The notes under the pieces were generated by a model. It was not told the DNA's origin and searched no databases. It saw only the letters and a program-made list of their open reading frames with translations. From Clostridia bacterium (GTDB lineage: Bacteria > Bacillota > Clostridia > TANB77 > CAG-508), in contig JAAWEA010000044.1 in NCBI GenBank assembly GCA_022794055.1, forward strand, positions 19,006-83,005: 64,000 nucleotides of DNA, given 5' to 3'. This document shows positions 17,220 through 45,341 of the stretch, piece after piece (the stretch's first letter is position 1; the number at the start of each line of letters is the position of its first letter). A program made the position numbers and the translations under genes.

Positions 17220-17366
17220 AATACTTAATTTTATTGATTTCTGTTTTAGTATTTTTACTAATTTTTGTATCAATAATTTGACCTTAAGTAAAAGCCACTA
17301 GAGCATCCGCCGAATATTTCGATAACCCTAGACCTCGTCAACCTAAATGGTTCTGGCGCTTAGAAA
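17220..17366 (-). ncRNA. glmS ribozyme: glmS ribozyme (GlcN6P-responsive self-cleaving riboswitch) in glmS 5' leader
   Basis: The minus strand reads ...A|GCGCCAGAACCAUUUAGGUUGACGAGGUCUAGGGUUAUCGAAAUAUUCGGCGGAUGCUCUAGUGGC... The AGCGCCAGAAC cleavage-site/P1 core, GACGAGG and UUAUCGAA...UUCGGCGGAUGC are canonical glmS ribozyme elements. A P4-like stem UUAUUGAU/AUCAAUAA lies downstream. Confidence 0.85.
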
Positions 17367-17632
17367 TTAACTCCTTTCTTATAAATTTTTTGCATATTTC
17401 AATTTGTATATTATATTACTATAAATGATAAAAATGTGCAAGTACAATAACTGATATTACAAGAAAAATTTCGATTTTTTTCTATACAAGTACAAAAGGG
17501 GAATGATTGAAATTTTTAGACATTTTAGATAACTTACATGCCCTGTTTTTGTTCGCCTGTCAATTTTATGTAAGTAAAATTATATAGAATTATCTATGTT
17601 ATAGGAAAATCTTTTATTTTTTTTATAACACG

Positions 17633-22696: not shown

Positions 22697-23560
22697 ATGA
22701 AATTAGCAAGTGAGTGGGAAAATTATAAGTTGTTAGATATGGCGAATGGACAAAAATTAGAAAGATGGGGAGATGTTGTACTTTCTAGGCCTGATCCACA
22801 AATTATATGGAAAGAAAAAAGTTTTCCTAAAAAATGGAAAGAAATTAATGCGACATATCATAGAAGTAATTCAGGTGGAGGCTCATGGGAATTTAATAAA
22901 AAAATGCCAAAGCAATGGAAAATTAAATATAAAAGTTTAACATTTAATATTAAACCAATGGGATTTAAGCATACAGGACTATTTCCAGAGCAAGCGATAA
23001 ATTGGGATTGGATGATAAATAAAATAAGATTAGAAAGAAGAGAAATAAAAGTATTAAATTTATTTGCATATACAGGTGGAGCAACAGTTGCTTGTAGCTA
23101 TGCAGGTGCAGCAGTATGCCATGTAGATAGTTCAAAAGGAATGACTACATGGGCAAAAGAAAATTTAGAAGCATCGGGATTGAAAGATAGACCTGTTAGA
23201 TTTATTGTTGATGATGTTGTAAAGTTTGTAAATAGGGAGATTAGAAGAGGAAATAAATATGATGCTATTATAATGGATCCGCCATCTTATGGAAGAGGAG
23301 CAAATGGAGAAGTATGGCAATTTGAAAATAATATATATGATTTAGTAGAACTATGCACAAATGTATTATCAGATAATCCATTATTTTTCTTAATTAATTC
23401 ATATACTACAGGAATATCTAGTAAGGTTTTGGAAAACATTTTAGATCTAACAGTAAATAGAAAGAAAAAAGGTAAATTGGAATCAGGAGAAATAGGAATT
23501 CCAATGGAAAATTCCAAATTAGTGTTGCCTGCTGGAATTTATGGAAGATGGGAGAAATAG
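22697..23560 (+). CDS. class I SAM-dependent methyltransferase (RlmI/YccW-like RNA methyltransferase family)
   Basis: AYTGGATVACSYAGA is the motif I Gly-rich loop. IMDPPSYGR is a DPPxF/Y-type motif IV. Confidence 0.55.
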   Translation: MKLASEWENYKLLDMANGQKLERWGDVVLSRPDPQIIWKEKSFPKKWKEINATYHRSNSGGGSWEFNKKMPKQWKIKYKSLTFNIKPMGFKHTGLFPEQAINWDWMINKIRLERREIKVLNLFAYTGGATVACSYAGAAVCHVDSSKGMTTWAKENLEASGLKDRPVRFIVDDVVKFVNREIRRGNKYDAIIMDPPSYGRGANGEVWQFENNIYDLVELCTNVLSDNPLFFLINSYTTGISSKVLENILDLTVNRKKKGKLESGEIGIPMENSKLVLPAGIYGRWEK

Positions 23561-24280
23561 ATATTTATACTATTTTAAAAGGAGAAAAAATGAAAAATTT
23601 GAAAGTAATATATGAAGATAATCATATTATTGTAGTAGAGAAATTACCTAATATTCCGTCTCAAGCTGATAAGACAGAAGACATAGATATGATAACTATA
23701 GTAAAAGAATATATTAAAGAAAAATATAATAAACCTAGAAATGTATATTTAGGATTGGTGCATAGGCTAGATAGACCTGTTGGAGGTGTTATGATATTTG
23801 CTAAAACTTCTAAGGCAGCAGGAAGATTAAGTGATCAGGTAAGAAATAAAGTTTTTAAGAAAAAATATTTAGCAGTAGTTGATGGAAAAGTAAATCCAAA
23901 TAAGCGGAGATTTAGAAGATTATTTATATAAAGATGAAAGAAATAATATGAGTAAAGTAGTTAGTAAAGACAAGAAGAATGCAAAGTTAGCAAAGTTAGA
24001 TTATGAATTAATAACTTATAATGAAGTAAAAAAATTAAGTTTAATAAAAGTAAATTTACATACAGGGAGACATCATCAAATTAGAGTGCAATTATCACAT
24101 TTTGGGCATAGCATTTTTGGAGATCAAAAATATGGACTTAGAGGAAAAGGTAAGCAAATAGCATTATGGGCTTATGAATTAACTATAGAACATCCAATTA
24201 CTAAAGAAGAAATAACATTTAAAGATTTACCACAAAGTTTAGGAACATGGTGCATTTTAAAAAATATTAGTAATTTATAG
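23548..24280 (+). pseudogene. RluA-family pseudouridine synthase disrupted by +1 frameshift (single C insertion near 23905)
   Basis: ORF1 carries HRLDRPVGGVMIFAKT, the RluA catalytic Asp motif. ORF2 carries LHTGRHHQIRVQLSH. Deleting C in AAG-C-GGA gives a continuous ...DGKVNPNKGDLEDYLYKDERNNMSKVV... reading frame. Confidence 0.7.
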
Positions 24281-24498
24281 AAGATAGTAAAAACTATCTT
24301 CTTTATTTTTTTGTAGATATAAAAATAGTATTCATTATTTTAGTTTAGCGAGAAATTTACAAAAACACCAAAATATTTTATGAAACAGAAAATATTAAAA
24401 GATGCAAAAGAAAAGCGAGGTTTAATAAAATAAATAAAAACATTCCTCTATAAGGTGATAAACTACGTTTAACAAAAGAGGAAACGTGGTGAGAAAAA

Positions 24499-25110
24499 AT
24501 GATAGATAAAATCACTCAATCTCTAACCAATAAAATAAGAAAAAAAATGCCAGATGTAGATGATGAAAGAGCAGAAATAATAAATTATGGGCTTCAAGTT
24601 CTTTTAGGTGAAGTTCCTAAAATATTTATAATGTTATTAATATCATATATATTAGGAGTGTTTAAATTAACTTTAATTACATTTTTAATATTGATTCCAT
24701 ATAGAGGAGCTTCTGGAGGATTTCATCTAAAGACACATATAGGATGTATAATATCAACATGTGCATTTTATTGTGGGGTTGCATTTTTATCAAAAAGCAT
24801 TATTTTAGGTAATATTGAAAAATATTTATTAGTAGTTGCAGTAGGAATATTTGCAATGATTATGATAAAACTATATGCACCTGCTGATACAGAAGAAGCA
24901 CCAATTGTAAGTAAAAGATTAAGAAAGAAAAAACAAATTGCATCTTATATTTTTCTTATAATAGGTTTAGTGATAGCTATTTTTATAAAAAATAATATAA
25001 TTTCTAATATGATTATATTTGGATATTTTATACAAACATGTATGATTACAAGAATTGCTTATAAAATTACAAATAATAAATATGGATATGAATTATATGA
25101 AAATGCTTAA
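24499..25110 (+). CDS. agrB: accessory gene regulator B (AgrD-processing membrane endopeptidase)
   Basis: 203-aa polytopic protein with the AgrB hallmarks R-x-x-GG-x-H...C (PYRGASGGFHLKTHIGCIISTC). Confidence 0.75.
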   Translation: MIDKITQSLTNKIRKKMPDVDDERAEIINYGLQVLLGEVPKIFIMLLISYILGVFKLTLITFLILIPYRGASGGFHLKTHIGCIISTCAFYCGVAFLSKSIILGNIEKYLLVVAVGIFAMIMIKLYAPADTEEAPIVSKRLRKKKQIASYIFLIIGLVIAIFIKNNIISNMIIFGYFIQTCMITRIAYKITNNKYGYELYENA

Positions 25111-25187
25111 AATTATTTAGTTAATATTAAAAATACAAGCCGGCAGTATTTTTATATTATATATAAAAAACAAAGGAGGAAATCTTT

Positions 25188-25307
25188 ATGTTAAAATTTT
25201 TAGCTAAAGTTGCAGAAAAATATGCTAAATCTACAAATACAGCTTGTGGAATTATGTGGATAATGCATCAACCAAAAATGCCAGCAAGCTTAGTAAAAAA
25301 AGATTAA
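25188..25307 (+). CDS. agrD: autoinducing-peptide precursor AgrD (39 aa, absent from supplied ORF track)
   Basis: RBS AAAGGAGGA sits 7 nt before the ATG. The peptide is MLKFLAKVAEKYAKSTNTACGIMWIMHQPKMPASLVKKD: an amphipathic leader, a Cys-containing core and an HQP-charged tail as in clostridial AgrD (..SACLWFTHQPEEPKSL). It lies directly downstream of agrB. Confidence 0.65.
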   Translation: MLKFLAKVAEKYAKSTNTACGIMWIMHQPKMPASLVKKD

Positions 25308-25473
25308 TTTTCAATATGTTTTTAAATTTAAGTATAGTGTTTAATTATACTGTACTTAAAATAATATACTTTAATGTTATTATAAACAATCCAACCAAAA
25401 AAGAACAGTTTAAACTGTTCTTTTTTGGTTGGATAAAATAAAGAAGGAATTTTTATTCTAAAATCCTTTTTAT

Positions 25474-26823
25474 TTAATAGTAAATTTCTAATTGTTGAGA
25501 GAAATATTCATCATCTTTTGTTGTAGTTAAATTGACATTATTGTTCTTTTTTAATATTTGTGTAATTTCCCATAGTCCAAGTCCAGTATGATTTTCTTTT
25601 TCACTATAACCTTTATTAAATATTGTGTTTATATCAATATCTTTATTTTTATAAGTATTTTCTATTAAAACTATATTTCTATTATTTTTAGTATCATTTC
25701 TAAAAACAATATTTAATACTTTTTTATCACATTCTGATGTGGCTTCAATACTATTATCTAACAATATTCCTAGTATTCTTGTGAATTCATATATTTTCAT
25801 ATTTATATCATTTAAATCAAGTAAAAATGTTAAGTTTACTTTTATTCCTTTTTCTTCAGCTTGATTATATTTTGTTGTAAGTAAATTATATATACCTGGA
25901 TTGTTAACAATATCTGGATTTAGAATATATAAATTATTTACTTTTTCACAGTCTTCTTGTAATTGTGAATAATATTTTTCTAGACCTTTCATATCATTTG
26001 TTTTTATATAGCCACCAATTGTTGTTACAATATTATCAAAGTCATGTTTAAAACCTCTAACATTATCATGTAGAATATGTAATGTTTTGTTATATTCTTC
26101 TGAACTCTCTAATTTCTGTTTAGTTGTAGCCAATGACATAATTTTTGCTAAACTAAAGAAACTTAAACCAAAATAAATAATTAAACTGATAAAATTAAAA
26201 AAAGTAAATTGGATAGGTAGTATATCAGTATAATTATATGTTAATATAACTTGCATTACTATATTAAAAAATCCAAATATAAAATTTAAAGTAACAATAG
26301 ATTTATTAGTTTTATCAAAATTTTCTATTATGTTTATAGCAATTTTTCTATATTTTAATATAAAAGCAAAAATATATACTATTAAATACATTAAAATCGA
26401 AAAAGGTATTCTAAAAATTGGAATTGTAGTAGCCTGTTCAGTAGAAATGTCAAAAATATTTAGATAGGGTGTAAAAATTAAACCACCAACTAAACTAAAA
26501 ATAATGCCAGGATAGACAGCAGCAATTAATGTCTTTAATATATTCATTTTAAAGATAAAATGTACAAGTACAAATGCTGAAATATAATTAAAAATAACAT
26601 TATATGGTGATTTTATAAGAAACATTGCTAGTAATGCTATACTTGCAGTTGTAATTATATAAGTATATTTTTGTCTTTTGGAACAATCAACTTTAAAGGC
26701 ATTTCTTATAAGTAAGAACATTAATGGTGCTTCTATAAAAATATTTAGGAATATATAACATATATTTATTAAAAGTTGATTTGGAGTAGTAATAGCATTC
26801 CAAAAACTATTAAAAATGTCCAT
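25474..26823 (-). CDS. AgrC-like sensor histidine kinase (GHKL/HATPase_c_5 with polytopic sensor domain)
   Basis: Six or seven N-terminal TM helices. The C-terminus (GYSEKENHTGLGLWEITQILKK) is the AgrC/LytS-type ATPase G-box. Its start overlaps the upstream LytTR regulator gene. Confidence 0.7.
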   Translation of the reverse strand: MDIFNSFWNAITTPNQLLINICYIFLNIFIEAPLMFLLIRNAFKVDCSKRQKYTYIITTASIALLAMFLIKSPYNVIFNYISAFVLVHFIFKMNILKTLIAAVYPGIIFSLVGGLIFTPYLNIFDISTEQATTIPIFRIPFSILMYLIVYIFAFILKYRKIAINIIENFDKTNKSIVTLNFIFGFFNIVMQVILTYNYTDILPIQFTFFNFISLIIYFGLSFFSLAKIMSLATTKQKLESSEEYNKTLHILHDNVRGFKHDFDNIVTTIGGYIKTNDMKGLEKYYSQLQEDCEKVNNLYILNPDIVNNPGIYNLLTTKYNQAEEKGIKVNLTFLLDLNDINMKIYEFTRILGILLDNSIEATSECDKKVLNIVFRNDTKNNRNIVLIENTYKNKDIDINTIFNKGYSEKENHTGLGLWEITQILKKNNNVNLTTTKDDEYFSQQLEIYY

Positions 26824-27520
26824 ATTTTTTAACCTCCTCGATTAAAGTCTTTTTATATTTAGGACCAATATCACAAGTGGAGCCATTATCAAAATATATT
26901 AAATCTTCTACAGGATCTAAATTAATAAGATTATTAACATTTACTATAAATGATTTATGAGACCTAATAAAATTAGAAGGTAAAGAATCTTGAATTTTGA
27001 CAAATGAACTATAAGTTTCATAATCTCTATTTTTAGTATGAAATATTAATTTCATAGCATCACGTTTAATATATAAAATTTCATCTTCAGCAATAATGGT
27101 TTTCTTATTATCAATCTTTATATATTTTTTAGGACACCCATTAACATCATCAAATAATCGAATAATAGTTTCTTCTAATCTTTCATAAGTAATAGGTTTA
27201 GCTAAATAATCAAATGTTTTAAATCTATAAGCCATCATTGCATATTCTAAATGAGCAGTTGTAAATATAAAATAAGTGTCTTTATATTTTTTTCTTACAA
27301 GAGATGCTATTTCTAAACCAGATTTATCAGATTTTAAATTAATATCTAAAATTAATACATCAGTTTTATTATCATCTACATAATCTAATAGTTCATCAAC
27401 ATTATCTGTTTTAAAACCAATTTGTGCATCATAGTTATGTTTAATAAAAATACTTTCTAGTATTTTAGAAAATTTATCTAAAATATTCAGGTTATCATCA
27501 CATATTACAAAGTTTAACAT
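26810..27520 (-). CDS. LytTR-family response regulator (AgrA/VirR-like)
   Basis: Receiver domain (VICDDN...DVLILDINL...) plus a C-terminal LytTR DNA-binding domain (IRSHKSFIVNVNNLINLD). Confidence 0.85.
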   Translation of the reverse strand: MLNFVICDDNLNILDKFSKILESIFIKHNYDAQIGFKTDNVDELLDYVDDNKTDVLILDINLKSDKSGLEIASLVRKKYKDTYFIFTTAHLEYAMMAYRFKTFDYLAKPITYERLEETIIRLFDDVNGCPKKYIKIDNKKTIIAEDEILYIKRDAMKLIFHTKNRDYETYSSFVKIQDSLPSNFIRSHKSFIVNVNNLINLDPVEDLIYFDNGSTCDIGPKYKKTLIEEVKKYGHF

Positions 27521-27843
27521 TTGTATCCTCCTAAAATTTAAAAAATTAACTTAAAAATTTAATAAAATAAAGGAATCGACAAAATGATATAAATTTCCTT
27601 TATTTTCCAATTTATATTACAATATAATCTAAAATTTTTTCATTGTCAATAGAAACTTTAGAAAATTATCCAAACGGAAATATAATTGATATTAATAGTG
27701 TTTGCTAATAAAACTGTTAGTATTATTTCTTGAATAGTAAATGGAAAATATTGGAAAAATATAAATAAGACAAAATAGTAATAATTAAAAAAACAAAAAC
27801 ATAAAATTTATAAAAGAAAAATACTAGCTTAGGAGGCAAAAAA

Positions 27844-28650
27844 ATGAAAAGAAGTTTGATATTAAAAATTTTTGTATTATTATTGTTAATTTTTTCAGTA
27901 ACATTAATAGTGAATAAAGGAGAAAAAGAAGAGTCAATACTAACAAATTCACAAACATTAAATAATAAAAAAATAGGATGGGGTATAAAAAGAAATGATA
28001 ACCATGAACAACCAGACTTAGGAAAATCAAATTTAGAAATTTTAGAAAAGAACAATGGAATAGCTATGGGAAATAAAAATGCTAAATTTGTTTATCTAAC
28101 ATTTGATGAAGGGTATGAAGCAGGATATACACCTAAAATTTTACAAACATTAAAGGAAAATAATGTAACAGCAACATTTTTTATTACAGCTCATTACTTA
28201 AATACACAAGAAGAGCTAGTAAAACAAATGATAGATGAAGGACATATTGTAGGAAATCATACTTGTAATCATCCTTCAATGCCAGATATAACAGATGAAA
28301 AGATAAATTCAGAAGTTATGGACTTACATAAAGCTATATATGAAAAATTTCAATATGAAATGAAATATATTAGACCACCAAAGGGAGAATATAGTGAAAG
28401 AACTATAAATATAACAAATTCATTAGGATATAAAACAGTTATGTGGTCTTTTGCGTATGAGGACTGGAATGAAGATAAACAGCCAGAAGAAGCAGTTGCA
28501 AAGCAAAAGATATTAGATAATGTTCATAATGGAGAAATAATTTTGTTACATGGAAATTCAAAAACAAATACAAATATTTTAGGAGATATAATTAAAGAAA
28601 TAAAAGCAATGGGATATGAATTTAGATCTTTAGATGAATTTAAAAGTTAA
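27844..28650 (+). CDS. polysaccharide deacetylase (NodB domain; PdaA-like sporulation cortex deacetylase)
   Basis: Signal/TM N-terminus and NodB motifs: LTFDEGY (TFDDG-like), HTCNHPS, LLHG. Confidence 0.75.
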   Translation: MKRSLILKIFVLLLLIFSVTLIVNKGEKEESILTNSQTLNNKKIGWGIKRNDNHEQPDLGKSNLEILEKNNGIAMGNKNAKFVYLTFDEGYEAGYTPKILQTLKENNVTATFFITAHYLNTQEELVKQMIDEGHIVGNHTCNHPSMPDITDEKINSEVMDLHKAIYEKFQYEMKYIRPPKGEYSERTINITNSLGYKTVMWSFAYEDWNEDKQPEEAVAKQKILDNVHNGEIILLHGNSKTNTNILGDIIKEIKAMGYEFRSLDEFKS

Positions 28651-28748: not shown

Positions 28749-29033
28749 ATGAAAAAAAAGAAAAATACATTATCAAAAATCGATAGACTTTTAGAAATGC
28801 CACAAGAGGTATATTCAGATACTCCTAAATTGACAATTACAGGGTTTAATGAAATGGTGATAGAAAATTTTAAAGGAATATTAGAATATGAAGACTATTA
28901 TATTAGAATAAATACTTCTTTGGGCTTGGTAAATATAAATGGATATGAATTAAAATTAGAAAATATGACAAATGATGATATAAGAGTAACTGGAAAGATA
29001 GAGAGTATTGATATTGAAAGAAAGTTTGATTGA
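28749..29033 (+). CDS. yqfC: sporulation protein YqfC (YabP/YqfC family)
   Basis: 94 aa, ...LTITGFNEMVIENFKGILEYEDYYIRINTSLGLVNINGYELKLENM... Synteny with yqfD. Confidence 0.7.
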   Translation: MKKKKNTLSKIDRLLEMPQEVYSDTPKLTITGFNEMVIENFKGILEYEDYYIRINTSLGLVNINGYELKLENMTNDDIRVTGKIESIDIERKFD

Positions 29034-29092
29034 AAATAATTAATTTTTTACATTGCCAAAATTCTAATTTGATGAAAGGAGTGAAATTAAAT

Positions 29093-30277
29093 ATGATAAT
29101 TAAGATTCTTTTAAATTATATAATTGGATATATAAGAATATCGATAGAAGGATATTATATAGAAAGATTTATCAATATAAGTAGAAACAATAAAATAACA
29201 ATATGGAATTTAAGAAGAGATAAGAATGTAAAACTAGAATTAAATGTTGGAATAAAAGATTTAAAAAAGGTTGCAAAAATTGCTAAACAAACACAATGTA
29301 AACTTAAAATTATAAAGAAAAGAGGAATACCTTTTATTTTTAATAAATACAAAAAAAGGAAGATTTTCTTAGCATTTTTAATTTTACTTATGCTGTTACT
29401 CGGAATTTCATCAAACTTTATATGGAATATAGAAATTATAGAAGAAAATGAAGAGATAGTTCAAGAGTTAGAAAAAGATATTCAAGAAGCAGGATTGACT
29501 ATTGGAAAGTTGAAATCAAAAGTAAATACAAAAGAAATTATAAATAAGGTAAGGTTACAAAGAGAAGATATAGCGTGGATGGGAATTGAACTTAAAGGAA
29601 CAAATGTAATAGTAAAAGTAGTAAAATCTACTTCAAAACCAGAAATTATAGATGAAGAAGATTACTGTAGTATTGTTTCAGATAAACAAGGGATTATAAC
29701 AAAAATTAACGCACAAAATGGAACAATAGTAGCAAAAGTAGGAGACACAGTAAATGTTGGAACAACATTAATAAATGGATGGATGGAAGGAAAATACACA
29801 GGAATTAGATATGTACATGCAAAAGGTGAAATTCAAGCAAAAGTATGGTATTCTGAAAGTATGACTATTCCTTATGAAGCTACGGAAAGAAGTGAAACAG
29901 GAAAGATTGAAAATAAATATAAGATAAAATTTAACAATTTTGAAATAAATTTTTCAAAAAGACTTTCAAAATTTGAAATTTATGATACAATATATTCAGA
30001 AAATAAATTTAAAATATTTCAAGACTTTTATTTACCTATTTCCCTAGTAAAAACAACTAATAAGGAAATTATAGAAGAAACAAAAAAATATACACCAGAA
30101 GAAGCGATGAATATAGGGATACAAAAATTACAGGAAAAATTGGATGACCAAATAGAAGATAAAGAAAAAATAGTAAATAAAATTATCAATAAAGAGGAAA
30201 AAGAAGAAGGAATAGAAATTAATGTGATTTATGAAGTACTTGAAAACATTGGCACAAATGAGAAGATTGTATTTTAA
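29093..30277 (+). CDS. yqfD: stage IV sporulation protein YqfD
   Basis: ATG at 29093 after AAAGGAGTG. About 395 aa with a central TM segment. Its position is that of yqfD in the yqfC-yqfD-ybeY cluster. Confidence 0.65.
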   Translation: MIIKILLNYIIGYIRISIEGYYIERFINISRNNKITIWNLRRDKNVKLELNVGIKDLKKVAKIAKQTQCKLKIIKKRGIPFIFNKYKKRKIFLAFLILLMLLLGISSNFIWNIEIIEENEEIVQELEKDIQEAGLTIGKLKSKVNTKEIINKVRLQREDIAWMGIELKGTNVIVKVVKSTSKPEIIDEEDYCSIVSDKQGIITKINAQNGTIVAKVGDTVNVGTTLINGWMEGKYTGIRYVHAKGEIQAKVWYSESMTIPYEATERSETGKIENKYKIKFNNFEINFSKRLSKFEIYDTIYSENKFKIFQDFYLPISLVKTTNKEIIEETKKYTPEEAMNIGIQKLQEKLDDQIEDKEKIVNKIINKEEKEEGIEINVIYEVLENIGTNEKIVF

Positions 30278-41315: not shown

Positions 41316-42536
41316 TTAAGTTTGATTTAATAAAAATCCAGAATCTATAATAGTTTCTATATCAATATCAAAAGTAGAATTTTTATAATTATTTTGCCAA
41401 TCATAATTTTCAAATTCACTAGTAGTAGTAAATTCAGAAAGTGCATAAGAACCAAATTGATTTATATCACTTTTGAAAACATTAGAAGTTTTATATAAAT
41501 AATTAGAAAATTGACTTTCTAAATAAGTATTACAGGAATTTGAAATCTTATCTAAAATTTTATTGTCAAGATATTGTGCATCTCGGGTCATTGAATATAT
41601 TTTTCCAGAAAATCTTAGTTTTATCTTAACATAAGGTGCACCATTAACAATAGATACATCAATTTTATGAGTAGTATTTGGAGTTAAGTATATATCTATT
41701 TTATTATCTACAATTTCAGGATTTGGAATAGAAATAAGAAAGGTGTCAATTTTCTTTTCTATATTTAAAAAACAAGCTGTTTCAATAGCATTTAGTTCAC
41801 CCACTAATTTATCATTATCAAATACTGCAAGACCAATATTTTGAGTTTTTCTAGTACCAGTAATTGGAGTCTCATTTGATTTTATAGTAGAATCATTTAC
41901 TGTTTCTGAATTACTAGAATTATCAGAATTATTAATTCCACCTAGAATAGCATAAGGGTCAGAATAATTAGATGAGATATTATTAAAGAAATCACCTATT
42001 GTTGCATTACAGGTATATCCTGTATACTCACTAGTATTAGGGAAGATTTGGTAATATTTAGTTACTAGACTTTCCAAAGTAGGAGTGGAATTTTCAATAT
42101 AATATTTACTGTTACATTTACTAACAACAATATTTGAAGAAGGTCTAACTTGAGTTTCGTTTATTAAAGAATATATTTCATCTGCTATTCCATCTTTTGC
42201 TATTTCTTCAGAGAAAACAATTAACTTACAATGTGAAAGATTAACTTTTCTATCTAAATAAGCATTCATCATATTTATACCATTTGTTATAGAAGAACAT
42301 TGAACTGTATTAAACACAGGCTTTGTAGATAAAGTACCTTCACTGCTTGGATCAACTGCTGAAAATTCAAATGTTACTTCTAATTCATTAGTGTCAGATT
42401 TGTCAATTCCAAGTGCTATAACAAAAGCTAGGTTATCTATGTTAAGAGAATTGTAGGAAGCAGAAAAACTAGTAACAAATACAATAACTAATATAATAAT
42501 AAATAGTTTTGTTAATAAATTACTAATTGTTATCAC
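41316..42536 (-). CDS. spore germination protein, GerAC/GerKC-family
   Basis: 406 aa. ...ALGIDKSDTNELEVTFEF... is the Ger(x)C pattern. Third gene of an A-B-C operon. Confidence 0.7.
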   Translation of the reverse strand: MITISNLLTKLFIIILVIVFVTSFSASYNSLNIDNLAFVIALGIDKSDTNELEVTFEFSAVDPSSEGTLSTKPVFNTVQCSSITNGINMMNAYLDRKVNLSHCKLIVFSEEIAKDGIADEIYSLINETQVRPSSNIVVSKCNSKYYIENSTPTLESLVTKYYQIFPNTSEYTGYTCNATIGDFFNNISSNYSDPYAILGGINNSDNSSNSETVNDSTIKSNETPITGTRKTQNIGLAVFDNDKLVGELNAIETACFLNIEKKIDTFLISIPNPEIVDNKIDIYLTPNTTHKIDVSIVNGAPYVKIKLRFSGKIYSMTRDAQYLDNKILDKISNSCNTYLESQFSNYLYKTSNVFKSDINQFGSYALSEFTTTSEFENYDWQNNYKNSTFDIDIETIIDSGFLLNQT

Positions 42537-43620
42537 CTACCTTTCTTTTCTTCAAATTTGCCAATAATAAGACCATCATACCTAAAATAAAACCAATAGC
42601 AATTCTAAGGTATCTATAAACACCTGTTTCAAAGAAGATAGAACTAGCATAATTTTTAGGCAATAAGCTAATTGCAAAAATTAAAATTGCAAAGATATTA
42701 AGAACTGGTTTCATACTTGATAAATTAAGCATTTTTGCAAATATATGTGTAGAAAATTTACAAGTTATACTTAAATAACAGCAAAAAGATATTATCCAAA
42801 TTAGTAGAAATATAGATTCAAATCTTTGGAAGAATGCACCAAATTCTATATATCTAGCAGCAGAGAAAAGTGGCATTATTTCATCTGCAGTTATAAAAAA
42901 TGAGAACATAAAAAGTAATGTAGCAACACAGATAGCTATAAATATTCCAGTTGTAATAACAGATATTACAGCAATTTTCTTTAATTTTTCAGGTTGTTTT
43001 AACATTGGTGGTAAAAAATATAAATAGCAAATTCCACCAAATGCCCCTATATTTTTTAGACCTAAAACAAATGTATTATACCAGCCATCTCCTAATATAG
43101 GGTACATTCTTCTAAAAGAAAAATTATGAAGGTTTCCAAAAAATAGTAATATTATACTAATTATTACTATGGGAAATATAATAGCTGAAGTATTTATAGT
43201 TGAATTAAAGCTTAATCTATTTACTAATACCAAAGAGATTATAAACATAGCAATAATAACAATATAACTGGTTAAAGGATAATAAATAACTACTAAACCT
43301 TCGCAAAAATTTCTTAACATTATACTAGAACTAGAAATAAAGTAAAATATAAAAAGACCACCAACAATGTTTTTAAAAAAATTCCCACCTAAATATTCAG
43401 AAATATCCAAAAGATCTAATCCAGGAAATTTTTTAATTAACTTACAAAATAGTAGAATAATAAATAAAACTATTGCTGTAGTATATATAATATTTAATAA
43501 TGTAGAGGATTTTGTTTCATTTATTAATGTTCTAGGTATAGAGCTAGTAATATATGATACAACTATTGAAAGTGTAAGCATAATAGCACTTATTGTATTG
43601 ATTTTTCTATTTTTTTCCAA
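42523..43620 (-). CDS. spore germination protein, GerAB-family (APC-type permease)
   Basis: 365 aa with about 10 TM helices, between the A and C genes. Confidence 0.8.
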   Translation of the reverse strand: MEKNRKINTISAIMLTLSIVVSYITSSIPRTLINETKSSTLLNIIYTTAIVLFIILLFCKLIKKFPGLDLLDISEYLGGNFFKNIVGGLFIFYFISSSSIMLRNFCEGLVVIYYPLTSYIVIIAMFIISLVLVNRLSFNSTINTSAIIFPIVIISIILLFFGNLHNFSFRRMYPILGDGWYNTFVLGLKNIGAFGGICYLYFLPPMLKQPEKLKKIAVISVITTGIFIAICVATLLFMFSFFITADEIMPLFSAARYIEFGAFFQRFESIFLLIWIISFCCYLSITCKFSTHIFAKMLNLSSMKPVLNIFAILIFAISLLPKNYASSIFFETGVYRYLRIAIGFILGMMVLLLANLKKRKVGDNN

Positions 43621-43634
43621 AATGATTCACCTCT

Positions 43635-45341
43635 TTATTTTAATTTCCATTTCATAGAGTACTTTTCTTGTTTTTTATTATTTTTTGTAGCAAGATATGG
43701 AGCTCTAATTTCATTCTGCCATATAGGAGGCAGTATAATTCCAGAAGTTTTTAAGTTTTCCATATTAGAATATGGAAGAGAATAAGAAACACCAAAAGAA
43801 TCCATATCACAAATAAGTGAAAGATAAACAAAAAGTCCAATACCAATTCCTAAAAATCCAGACATATATCCTAGTAAAATAAATAAGAATCTAAAAACTC
43901 TTAAATGGAAACTGAAAGAATAATCTGGAATTGCAAAAGAACTTAAAGCTGTTATTGCAACTATAATTACTAATATTGGGCTTACAACTCCAGCACTTAC
44001 AGCAGCTTGACCAACAACTAAACCTCCTACAATACCTATTGTAGTTCCTATTGCAGAAGGAACTCTAAGACTAGCTTCTCTTATAATCTCAAATGATATT
44101 TCCATTATTAATATTTCGAATATAATGGGAAAAGGTACACCTTCTCTGGCAGACAGGATGGAGTATAGTAATTCAGTAGGAAGAATTTCTATATGAAAAC
44201 TTGTAACAGAAACATATAGACCAGGCAAAAGAAGTGCAAAGAAACTCGCAAGAATTCTTAAACTTCTTAGAAAGTTGGAAAATATTGTTTTCAAATTTCT
44301 ATCTTCTGGAGATGTCAAAAAGTCAATTAAAATAGCTGGTAAAATTAAGGCATTTGGAGAGCCATTAACTAAAATAACAATTCTACCATCTAGTAAATGA
44401 TATGCAGCATTATCTGGTCTTTCAGTAGATAAAACTTTTGGTAATCCTAAGGAATTATTATCACTGATAAGTTGTTCTAACTGACCAGAAGAAAGTAAAG
44501 TTTCAATATCTAGATTATTTATCCTGTACTTAGTTTCAGCTACTAGGTCATTGTTAGCAATATTTTTCATATAACATACAGCACATTTAGTCTTAGTTAA
44601 TTTTCCAACATCTATATTCTCAATAACTAAATTTTCATTATTTGTAAAACGTCTTAATAAAGATGTATTTGTACGAATATTTTCAGCAAATGCTTCGTGT
44701 GGACCTTTTATTACTATTTCATTTTCGGGTTTTTCAACTCCTCTTTGCTTAAAACCTTTAATATCAATATCGAATGCTATATCAAGAGTATCAACAAAAA
44801 GTGCACAGTTTCCAGAATTGACACCTGAAAATAAATCTTCAAAAGAATTTGACTGTTTTATGTTATTTTGAGGGATTAGACAACTTTCTAAATAATCAGC
44901 TAAGTTAAATTTTTTGACTTTTCTTACAGTAATGTTATTGCTTATAGCTTCTGAAATTACTCTGTTTTGTTCGCCATCATAAAGATTATTTTTATTACGC
45001 ATCATCAAGGGTTGTAAAACAAAGTCATTTAATAATTGTGAATCTACCATACCATCTATATATAATAGAAATGCTTTATATTGCTTTCCTTTTACATTTA
45101 AAATAAATTCACGAGTAATAATATCACTATTTATAAGTAAGTTATATTTTGATTTAATATAGTCTAAATTAACACTTAAACTTGTATATAGAGTTTGTGA
45201 TTTTTGATTTGTTTCAGTATTTTCAGCTTTTGAGCTTACATCAGCATTTGTTTGGTTTGTATTATTGTCTGGAAGTGAAAAGTCATAAGTGGGTTGTGGT
45301 GTATAAGTAAAAATATTTTTTAAAAAATTTTTAATTTCCAT
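43635..45341 (-). CDS. spore germination protein, GerAA/GerKA-family
   Basis: 568 aa. Soluble N-terminal domain (...YKAFLLYIDGMVDSQLLNDFVLQPL...) plus a C-terminal membrane domain typical of GerAA. Confidence 0.85.
   Translation of the reverse strand: MEIKNFLKNIFTYTPQPTYDFSLPDNNTNQTNADVSSKAENTETNQKSQTLYTSLSVNLDYIKSKYNLLINSDIITREFILNVKGKQYKAFLLYIDGMVDSQLLNDFVLQPLMMRNKNNLYDGEQNRVISEAISNNITVRKVKKFNLADYLESCLIPQNNIKQSNSFEDLFSGVNSGNCALFVDTLDIAFDIDIKGFKQRGVEKPENEIVIKGPHEAFAENIRTNTSLLRRFTNNENLVIENIDVGKLTKTKCAVCYMKNIANNDLVAETKYRINNLDIETLLSSGQLEQLISDNNSLGLPKVLSTERPDNAAYHLLDGRIVILVNGSPNALILPAILIDFLTSPEDRNLKTIFSNFLRSLRILASFFALLLPGLYVSVTSFHIEILPTELLYSILSAREGVPFPIIFEILIMEISFEIIREASLRVPSAIGTTIGIVGGLVVGQAAVSAGVVSPILVIIVAITALSSFAIPDYSFSFHLRVFRFLFILLGYMSGFLGIGIGLFVYLSLICDMDSFGVSYSLPYSNMENLKTSGIILPPIWQNEIRAPYLATKNNKKQEKYSMKWKLK

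Follow-up and report, generated by a model that had tools for sequence, protein, structure and literature searches.

A chromosomal agr-type locus of uncultured gut Clostridia with a predicted seven-residue autoinducing peptide ring

An agr-type locus of an uncultured gut bacterium raises the questions of how large a ring its autoinducing peptide (AIP) would have, what final form that peptide would take, and whether it would be sensed by the adjacent kinase. The locus lies in a 64-kb stretch of DNA (the window) from a lineage of gut Clostridia with a low GC content (~26%), which is known only from metagenome-assembled genomes (MAGs) obtained from humans, rabbits, mice and ruminants. For comparison, we used 80 species-level gut MAGs carrying the same agrB (54-82% identity). 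We consider it fairly probable that the locus is a chromosomal agr module of two convergent operons, whose seven-residue thiolactone AIP would be sensed by the adjacent AgrC-like kinase. The locus is a real and ordinary agr-type peptide quorum-sensing system that looks functional (Table 1).

Table 1. Positions of the features of the agr-type locus in the 64-kb window
Feature	Position	Strand	Basis or remark
agrB, membrane peptidase/cyclase (203 aa)	24499..25110	+	PF04647; GenBank MCI8641056.1 'accessory gene regulator B family protein'
Shine-Dalgarno sequence AAGGAGG of agrD	25173..25179	+	read from the sequence; 8 nt ahead of the ATG at 25188
agrD, 39-aa AIP precursor	25188..25307 (stop included)	+	TIGR04223; MLKFLAKVAEKYAKSTNTACGIMWIMHQPKMPASLVKKD
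AgrD leader, Met1-Ala19 (amphipathic helix, and TNTA ahead of the cysteine)	25188..25244	+	hydrophobic moment, entropy
Predicted AIP macrocycle, Cys20-Met26 (CGIMWIM)	25245..25265	+	conserved nucleophile; proline-distance rule; ring inferred
AgrD follower (AgrB recognition tail, removed in processing)	25266..25304	+	HQPKMPASLVKKD
Probable shared terminator (20-bp perfect palindromic hairpin between the convergent operons)	25389..25434	none	terminator scan
AgrC-like sensor histidine kinase (449 aa; polytopic N-terminal sensor)	25474..26823	-	HATPase_c_5, E 9.6e-14
AgrA-like response regulator (REC + LytTR; 236 aa)	26810..27520	-	Response_reg PF00072, E 2.6e-14; LytTR PF04397, E 3.4e-16
Sigma-70-type promoter of the regulator-kinase operon, TTGACA-17 nt-TATATT	27621..27649	-	11/12 consensus match

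The first-pass annotation had described an agrB gene followed, after a 77-nt gap, by a 39-aa open reading frame (ORF) with a strong ribosome-binding site, and all of these were found (gap, 25111-25187). The assignment of AgrB was borne out by a score of 141.9 bits against Pfam PF04647 (cut-off, 23; E = 1.8e-41) and by a near-invariant catalytic-type His76/Cys83 pair among 80 orthologues, which we take to be the equivalent of H77/C84 in Staphylococcus aureus. The 39-aa ORF scored 28.6 bits against the NCBIfam AgrD model TIGR04223, above the curated cut-off of 19, in agreement with its proposed identity as AgrD. The ORF had also been called untracked, which is true of the ORF track used in the first pass but not otherwise: GenBank lists the exact peptide under MCI8641057.1 ('cyclic lactone autoinducer peptide'), and the ORF was also called by gene callers in the ENA and Logan assemblies. 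As for its conservation in relatives with the same agrB, on which the earlier reading had been staked, the ORF lies downstream of agrB in 79 of the 80 related genomes, and the 80th locus is cut by a contig end.

The genes on the minus strand were likewise as described, namely a LytTR response regulator and an AgrC-like kinase with overlapping frames (14 nt between the regulator stop and the kinase start, 26810-26823), converging on agrB-agrD. The regulator has both the REC and the LytTR domains, and its residues D9, D59 and K108 are invariant among 71 orthologues; its score against the AgrA equivalog (63.3) is far below the cut-off of 400. The kinase has a GHKL-type HATPase_c_5 domain and about six to seven hydrophobic segments in residues 21-229, and its H260, N357 and G414/G416 are invariant among orthologues. 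Its PDB matches were two S. aureus AgrC chains only (best, 6e52 at 9.3e-24, over the cytoplasmic module), which supports the AgrC-like assignment. Since its best NCBIfam match, to staphylococcal AgrC, reached 125.7 bits and the equivalog cut-off is 500, we regard the kinase as AgrC-like and not as an AgrC orthologue.

The two operons, agrB-agrD on the plus strand and regulator-kinase on the minus strand, are retained in this order and orientation in almost every locus of sufficient length, and their chromosomal neighbourhood is common to the 80 species-level genomes. The agr genes diverge faster than their surroundings, with median identities of 61% for AgrB and 53% for the kinase versus 78-83% for the flanking housekeeping genes. 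Between the operons, the hairpin (20 pairs, of which seven are G-C) lies 82 nt past the agrD stop and 40 nt past the kinase stop, and it is accompanied by a minus-strand T-run. Neither RNAIII nor any other Rfam RNA was found near the locus; the Rfam matches in the window were a glmS ribozyme and one tRNA.

The AgrD peptide has the expected three parts, an amphipathic leader, a cysteine-containing core and a charged HQP tail, and each of them was borne out. The hydrophobic moment of the leader is 0.586, a value reached by 0.5% of shuffled sequences. Across 76 species, the entropy was at most 0.35 bits at positions 16-20 and at most 0.1 bits at A19, C20, H27, Q28, P29, K30, M31 and P32 (H27, Q28, P29, M31 and P32 in the follower being invariant), and it rose to 2.4-3.0 bits at exactly positions 21-26. 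In the clade, TNTA-Cys and HQPKMP are both invariant and enclose exactly six hypervariable residues. The nucleophile is cysteine in 75 species and serine in one, and the 76 scored cores are all distinct. A sister allele has the core CGIMWIL, and neighbouring species have, for example, CGGWWVL and CFVWSVL. In the proposed system, specificity would reside solely in the six residues that follow the cysteine in the ring, which are different in every species examined. The pN value was 0.52 in the core versus 0.095 in the flanks, and the pN/pS ratios were 0.77 and 0.20, respectively, the latter indicating purifying selection on the flanks. Positive selection on the core was considered but cannot be claimed because the synonymous sites are saturated (pS = 0.68), and the evolution of the core can be graded only as 'relaxed or diversifying'. 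We also considered a second cysteine or serine in the core as the nucleophile (position 24 is cysteine in 8/76 and serine in 7/76), and rejected it because most members, that in the window among them, lack such a residue, which would moreover make a three-residue ring. No second AgrD-like motif was found in any frame of the window. The TIGR04223 score, the single occurrence of the motif in the window, the amphipathic leader, the conservation in 79/80 genomes and the purifying selection on the flanks indicate that the agrD ORF did not arise by chance.

The spacing of seven residues from Cys20 to His27, which had been pointed out in the first pass, was confirmed and is fixed in 76/76 scored orthologues, so that neither the window nor any of these orthologues has the staphylococcal five-residue spacing between the nucleophile and the cleavage site. 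In six characterised precursors (S. aureus AgrD-I and AgrD-II, Clostridium perfringens and Listeria monocytogenes with five-residue rings, Clostridium acetobutylicum with six and Enterococcus faecalis FsrD with nine), the distance between the nucleophile and the invariant proline exceeds the ring size by 5. These precursor sequences were retrieved from databases, using an alignment with C. perfringens AgrD as its first sequence, and the ring structures were taken from the literature (PMC12312760, PMC8251862); only sequences returned by the databases were counted as evidence. Clostridioides difficile AgrD1 and Lactiplantibacillus plantarum LamD were left out of the set for want of an exact database match. 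In the window, the distance from the nucleophile to the proline is 12, and a seven-residue macrocycle, [CGIMWIM], is therefore a well-supported prediction ([M+H]+ computed as 835.3663), the rule being extrapolated from six systems whose rings are all of other sizes. No structure of AgrB or of an AgrB-AgrD complex was found against which the fit of a seven-residue loop could be gauged. The start of the ring at Cys20 agrees with the earlier proposal, and the clade-wide spacing together with the rule adds weight to the suspected atypical ring. A few family members (P0042, P0060, P0073 and P0168) have C+5 in place of C+6 with the HQP tail unchanged, indicating that length changes happen within the variable segment. 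The AIP ring sizes described so far are 5, 6 and 9 (PMC12312760). In a full-text literature search, we found no publication describing a seven-residue AIP ring, and no relevant match to the follower motifs HQPKMP, HQPKVP and HQPEEP.

These features suggest the following pathway. AgrD would dock on the membrane via its leader, whose amphipathicity was computed, and AgrB, through His76/Cys83, would cut between Met26 and His27, just ahead of the HQPKMP follower. By the positional rule, the Cys20 thiol would then capture the Met26 carbonyl to give the seven-residue thiolactone. The leader would next be cut at the junction of TNTA and the cysteine, leaving no exocyclic tail, and an S-to-N acyl shift may convert the product to a homodetic cyclic heptapeptide, both as in other clostridia. 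The junction is most likely the leader-cleavage site, though this is the least certain step of the pathway. Finally, the adjacent AgrC-like kinase would bind the peptide with its polytopic sensor and phosphorylate the LytTR regulator.

Two other products can be weighed against this prediction. If AgrB instead measured from the cysteine and cut after Trp24, the product would be a canonical five-residue ring, [CGIMW], with Ile25 and Met26 in the discarded follower. Among the characterised AIPs, no ring size is nearly as common as five residues, and the S. aureus receptor does not tolerate a change in ring size (PMC12312760); nevertheless, we find this product improbable. Positions 25-26 match positions 21-24 in variability (2.4 bits), with conservation starting sharply at His27, and they are unlikely to belong to the follower because a follower recognised by AgrB is expected to be conserved. 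They are also occupied by hydrophobic residues only, like the last two ring residues of CDFIM and CSSLF in S. aureus. Moreover, the ring ends exactly six residues ahead of the invariant proline in 6/6 precursors, whatever the ring size, and C. acetobutylicum, with one residue more in the interval, gives a six-residue ring confirmed by mass spectrometry (MS) (PMC8251862). Somewhat less improbable, but still unlikely in our judgement, is a seven-residue thiolactone that keeps an exocyclic tail (A-, TA- or NTA-[CGIMWIM]) and stays a thioester as in staphylococci. Such tails are present in staphylococcal, listerial and C. difficile AIPs (PMC12312760), and the conservation of TNTA (residues 16-19) throughout the clade is compatible with a functional tail; indeed, this invariance could equally reflect a conserved exocyclic tail. 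An invariant junction beside a hypervariable core also suits a conserved protease site, however, and gives indirect evidence of a tail-less product. Against a tail also stands the fact that all native clostridial AIPs detected by MS are lactams without an N-terminal extension, the lactam being recognised by labelling with N-benzylmaleimide and by resistance to hydrolysis in NaOH (PMC8251862).

Whether the adjacent kinase and regulator belong to the same circuit as agrB-agrD was judged from their co-variation with the peptide and from their promoters. The distance between AgrD cores correlated with that between sensors when the kinase module was controlled for (r = 0.22, p <= 0.0005), and the reverse control gave no correlation (r = 0.04, p = 0.13), although partial Mantel tests such as these are known to err on the liberal side for phylogenetically related sequences. 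The sensor of the kinase thus co-varies with the peptide core, from which we infer peptide binding. On the other hand, the four genes might be adjacent but not form one circuit, the kinase and regulator sensing another cue, or the peptide serving chiefly to interfere with other species and not as an autoinducer, and orphan agrBD loci do occur in clostridia (PMC12312760). Paired LytTR boxes, the consensus for which is staphylococcal and may not fit this regulator, were found upstream of neither agrB nor the regulator gene. The pattern [TA][AC][CA]GTTN[AG][TG] repeated at 11-14 nt had one match in the window (42220-42248; 0.22 expected by chance), which falls within a germination gene and is close to the chance level. 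Upstream of agrB, an imperfect direct repeat of 21 nt has a 47-nt spacing, the usual arrangement being ~21 nt, and the alignment of 80 upstream regions showed AT-rich conserved blocks and no clear operator. The sigma-70-type promoter of the regulator and kinase is near-consensus; TATTGACA occurs in 57 of 70 orthologous upstream regions, with the -35 and -10 blocks conserved in the alignment, and the promoter looks constitutive. Because of this promoter and the missing paired boxes, an autoinduction loop is unsupported. A separate circuit nevertheless appears very improbable to us, given the retained four-gene arrangement and the divergence of the sensor, which follows the peptide core beyond what it shares with the kinase module. 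In addition, the sensor, with an entropy of ~2.0 bits versus ~1.0 in the kinase module and therefore twice as variable, evolves faster than the rest of the locus, as it does in the staphylococcal agr specificity groups (PMC12312760).

There is perhaps an even chance that the entire lineage of gut Clostridia signals with tail-less cyclic heptapeptides, with a private six-residue code in each species and a co-diverging sensor. If so, about 80 or more natural triplets of ligand, receptor and processing enzyme would exist on one fixed scaffold, which would provide a ready-made data set for learning how the specificity of AgrC-type receptors and AgrB is encoded, and from which quorum-sensing modulators with expanded rings could be drawn. 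So far, the chemistry of no more than a few dozen AIPs, produced by a handful of species, has been established (PMC12180512, a study that covers 29,921 AgrDs), and the clade-wide seven-residue spacing would close the gap between the described ring sizes of 6 and 9. The proline-distance rule offers a simple, testable prediction of mature AIPs from sequence, of use to the synthetic-bioinformatic approach by which gut AIPs have already been studied, AlphaFold-Multimer models included (PMC11953309), and the at least 76 distinct cores, each with its matched receptor, form a natural specificity panel. The advance is incremental in that the locus is a standard agr system already recognised by annotation pipelines. 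With six- and nine-residue rings and separate agrBD and agrCA operons already known, the latter in clostridia (PMC12312760), it is also less unusual than first thought.

Among the characterised systems, that of C. acetobutylicum, also of the class Clostridia, is similar in having agrBD and the two-component genes in separate operons, a follower of the same type (YEPKMP, against HQPKMP here) and a ring larger than five ([CVLVTL], six residues against the predicted seven). Like the product proposed here, its AIP has no tail and rearranges to a lactam (PMC8251862). It differs in its longer leader (54-aa precursor, against 39 aa) and in that MS and complementation have verified its product, ours being a prediction; in the present locus, moreover, the regulator gene comes before the kinase gene, and both operons run towards a common hairpin. 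C. perfringens AgrD shares the three-part precursor, the Ala-Cys junction and the HQP start of the follower, but its AIP, [CLWFT], has a five-residue ring, and its leader is hydrophobic and signal-like rather than a short amphipathic helix; it has no adjacent kinase-regulator pair and its signal is sensed by the unlinked VirS/VirR (PMC7492741). S. aureus agrBDCA has the same four protein families and the same His/Cys catalytic pair in AgrB, and the cytoplasmic module of its AgrC is the closest solved structure to our kinase. As here, its hypervariability is concentrated in AgrD, in the sensor of AgrC and in a portion of AgrB (PMC12312760). However, it has a single operon with a divergent RNAIII and a five-residue ring with a variable tail of 2-4 residues, in contrast to the two convergent operons, the lack of a detected RNAIII, the predicted seven-residue ring and the invariant residues before the cysteine in the present locus. 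In E. faecalis fsr, an AgrB-family protein closes a ring well above five residues, consistent with the same proline-distance rule, but the product (GBAP, QN[SPNIFGQWM]) is a nine-residue lactone formed via serine that retains a two-residue tail, unlike the peptide predicted here. FsrD is translated inside the fsrB reading frame, and its 53-aa sequence clusters with the 242-aa FsrB.

The gene arrangement proposed in the first-pass annotation, in which agrB is followed after a 77-nt gap with a strong ribosome-binding site by an ORF of 39 aa, and overlapping regulator and kinase genes converge on this ORF, was recovered in full from the ORF list and the raw sequence. The proposed protein identities were also borne out. 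AgrB matched Pfam PF04647 (141.9 bits; no AgrB structure was found in PDB), the regulator has REC and LytTR domains, and the 39-aa ORF, which is without a Pfam match, passed NCBIfam TIGR04223 ('AgrD family cyclic lactone autoinducer peptide') with 28.6 bits (cut-off 19); PF05931, Pfam's own model for AgrD, matched only staphylococcal peptides in this analysis. The kinase has an HATPase_c_5 GHKL domain and about 6-7 hydrophobic segments in its N-terminal 230 residues; its top NCBIfam match was staphylococcal AgrC, under the equivalog cut-off, and in PDB it matched S. aureus AgrC only, with two chains (6e52, E 9.3e-24; 4bxi). The description of agrD as untracked holds for the ORF track used at that time but not for the databases: all four proteins are present unchanged in GenBank, with consecutive accessions (MCI8641056-59) from a 'Clostridia bacterium' MAG, where the peptide is named 'cyclic lactone autoinducer peptide'; the ORF is also called in ENA and Logan assemblies. 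This is a standard agr-type locus that pipelines already annotate, not a new kind of system, and split agrBD and two-component operons are already known in clostridia.

Features of the agr locus and their positions
Feature	Position	Strand	Remarks
agrB	24499-25110	+	203 aa; ORF list and raw sequence
Shine-Dalgarno AAGGAGG	25173-25179	+	closes the 77-nt agrB-agrD spacer; 8 nt 5' of ATG
agrD, 39-aa ORF MLKFLAKVAEKYAKSTNTACGIMWIMHQPKMPASLVKKD	25188-25307	+	ORF list and raw sequence
Perfect palindromic hairpin, 20 bp	25389-25434		between the convergent units; 82 nt from agrD stop, 40 nt from kinase stop
Kinase, 449 aa	25474-26823	-	
Response regulator, 236 aa	26810-27520	-	stop overlaps kinase start by 14 nt
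Near-consensus sigma-70 promoter, TTGACA-17 nt-TATATT	27649-27621	-	serves the regulator-kinase unit

Scanning with AgrB, with one genome per species, gave 80 related loci (AgrB identity 54-82%), all from gut MAGs of human (Hadza, Nepal, others), rabbit, mouse, sheep, goat and buffalo. Conservation in relatives, on which the annotation had made its proposal depend, was found in 80 of 80 loci: agrD lies 3' of agrB in every one (79 complete, one interrupted by the contig end), with a gap of about 55-180 nt, mostly 65-95 nt. The order methyltransferase, RluA, agrB and agrD, converging kinase and regulator, polysaccharide deacetylase, yqfC was constant wherever the contig was long enough, so the agr locus is vertically inherited. 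The agr genes are more diverged (median identity: AgrB 61%, kinase 53%, regulator 62%) than the neighbouring methyltransferase (83%) and RluA (78%); near-invariant residues are H76 and C83 in AgrB, H260, N357 and G414/G416 in the kinase, and D9, D59 and K108 in the regulator. GC content falls to its minimum for the window in region 24001-28000 (21.9%; other parts 25-30%), consistent with faster divergence of the agr genes than of the flanking genes.

Column statistics of AgrD from 76 species showed two conserved blocks, positions 16-20 (TNTAC; entropy <= 0.35 bits) and 27-32 (HQPKMP; <= 0.1 bits), enclosing exactly six variable positions, 21-26 (2.4-3.0 bits). The six-residue spacing after the nucleophile (Cys in 75, Ser in one) was present in 76/76, and all 76 cores were distinct. 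Positions 25 (mainly V, I, W, F, L) and 26 (mainly L, F, M, G, W) are variable yet hydrophobic, resembling the final two residues in the rings of S. aureus AIPs CDFIM and CSSLF. At the nucleotide level, the agrD flanks (pN 0.095, pS 0.47, ratio 0.20) are under purifying selection, so the gene is real, and the core (pN 0.52, pS 0.68, ratio 0.77, with synonymous sites saturated) shows relaxed or diversifying change. A complete HMMER search across 1.84 billion representatives yielded 53 matches at E <= 0.001, nearly all with the same layout, and a profile search of a 5.8-billion collection gave 2,324 AgrD-like matches, of which 119 were retrieved and 89 of these have the seven-residue spacing and HQP tail. 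Several members already carry the name 'cyclic lactone autoinducer peptide' in NCBI or JGI annotation.

The suspicion of an atypical ring or tail was strengthened by the spacing shared by all 76 species and by a ring-size rule. According to a 2025 primer (PMC12312760), most macrocycles have 5 residues; that of C. acetobutylicum (CVLVTL) has 6, and E. faecalis GBAP, 'the largest described', has 9. We set six precursor sequences, retrieved or verified in the protein database, against their published rings; in 6/6 the last ring residue lies exactly six positions ahead of the AgrD-wide invariant proline (P32 here; alignment A1 has no invariant column other than C20 and P32). Subtracting 5 from the nucleophile-to-proline distance thus gives the ring size (distance 10, ring 5 in four cases; 11, ring 6; 14, ring 9), and the distance of 12 in the window predicts a seven-residue ring, CGIMWIM, with cleavage between Met26 and His27. 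The sharp variability boundary at His27 agrees with this cleavage, and four rare family members (P0042, P0060, P0073, P0168), whose variable segment is five rather than six residues long and whose tail is the same, agree with the predicted ring. Our literature search, of incomplete coverage, turned up no account of an AIP with a seven-residue ring. The distinctive trait, a clade-wide spacing predicting a heptapeptide macrocycle whose six-residue code differs per species, is a well-grounded prediction from sequence. The leader may be cut at the invariant TNTA/C junction to give a tail-less lactam; this junction and clostridial precedent favour such a product over a tailed one, six-residue tail-less products having been detected in R. 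cellulolyticum (CWFWSY) and C. acetobutylicum (Molloy et al., PMC8251862).

Ser replaces Cys in a minority (locus L046 and family members P0041, P0045, P0054, P0070) with the seven-residue spacing unchanged; their products would be expected to be lactones, not thiolactones, the S-to-N shift not being possible. In contigs L081-L086, of the same species with 100% identical AgrB, the core is CGIMWIL instead of CGIMWIM (position 26; 25263-25265), a within-species Leu/Met polymorphism in the residue through which the thioester would be closed.

Entropy in the sensor half of the kinase (residues 1-230) is about 2.0 bits, compared with about 1.0 in the kinase module and 0.48 in the adjacent methyltransferase. 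Peptide-core distances correlated with sensor distances after removal of the kinase-module signal (partial Mantel r 0.22, p <= 0.0005) but not with kinase-module distances after removal of the sensor signal (r 0.04, p 0.13), and AgrB patterns like the sensor (r 0.21 controlling for the regulator). This co-variation, the same pattern as in staphylococcal agr specificity groups, supports a putative cognate trio of peptide, receptor and processing enzyme, although Mantel-type tests are liberal for related sequences.

The -35 and -10 blocks of the regulator-kinase promoter are kept across orthologous loci. A pattern search found no LytTR-type paired boxes at either agr promoter, so the sequence gives autoinduction no support, and an Rfam search found neither an RNAIII-like RNA nor a member of any other Rfam family there. 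Upstream of agrB is an imperfect 21-nt direct repeat (24410-24430, GAAAAGCGAGGTTTAATAAAA; 24457-24477, GATAAACTACGTTTAACAAAA; spacing 47 nt), both copies containing GTTTAA; the second resembles a LytTR half-site (TACGTTTAA), yet lies only about 22 nt 5' of the agrB start codon. The sole paired-box match in the window (42220-42248, minus strand; AAAGTTAAT, 11 nt, TAAGTTAAT) is within a gerAC-like gene and probably fortuitous (chance expectation about 0.2 matches).

Assigned by eye from translations, yqfC/yqfD-like ORFs lie directly 3' of the locus (28749-30277, plus strand) and a GerA-type germinant-receptor operon (gerAC/AB/AA-like) farther along (41316-45341, minus strand); with these flanking sporulation and germination genes, the uncultured host is probably a spore former. 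In other clostridia, agr controls sporulation (PMC8251862); with this precedent and the yqfC/yqfD and polysaccharide deacetylase neighbours, a sporulation regulon would be a reasonable guess, nothing more. Just 5' of agrB, an RluA-family pseudouridine synthase gene (23548-24280, plus strand) is broken into ORFs of 127 and 110 aa by one extra A at about 23898 (CCAAAT; CCAAT in other contigs). The gene is intact in sister contig L081 (2050-2781; 243 aa), and the frameshift is repeated in L086; it reflects either loss of the gene at strain level or an assembly error that recurs. Elsewhere in the window, 17221-17371 on the minus strand is a glmS ribozyme/riboswitch (Rfam RF00234, 77.6 bits).
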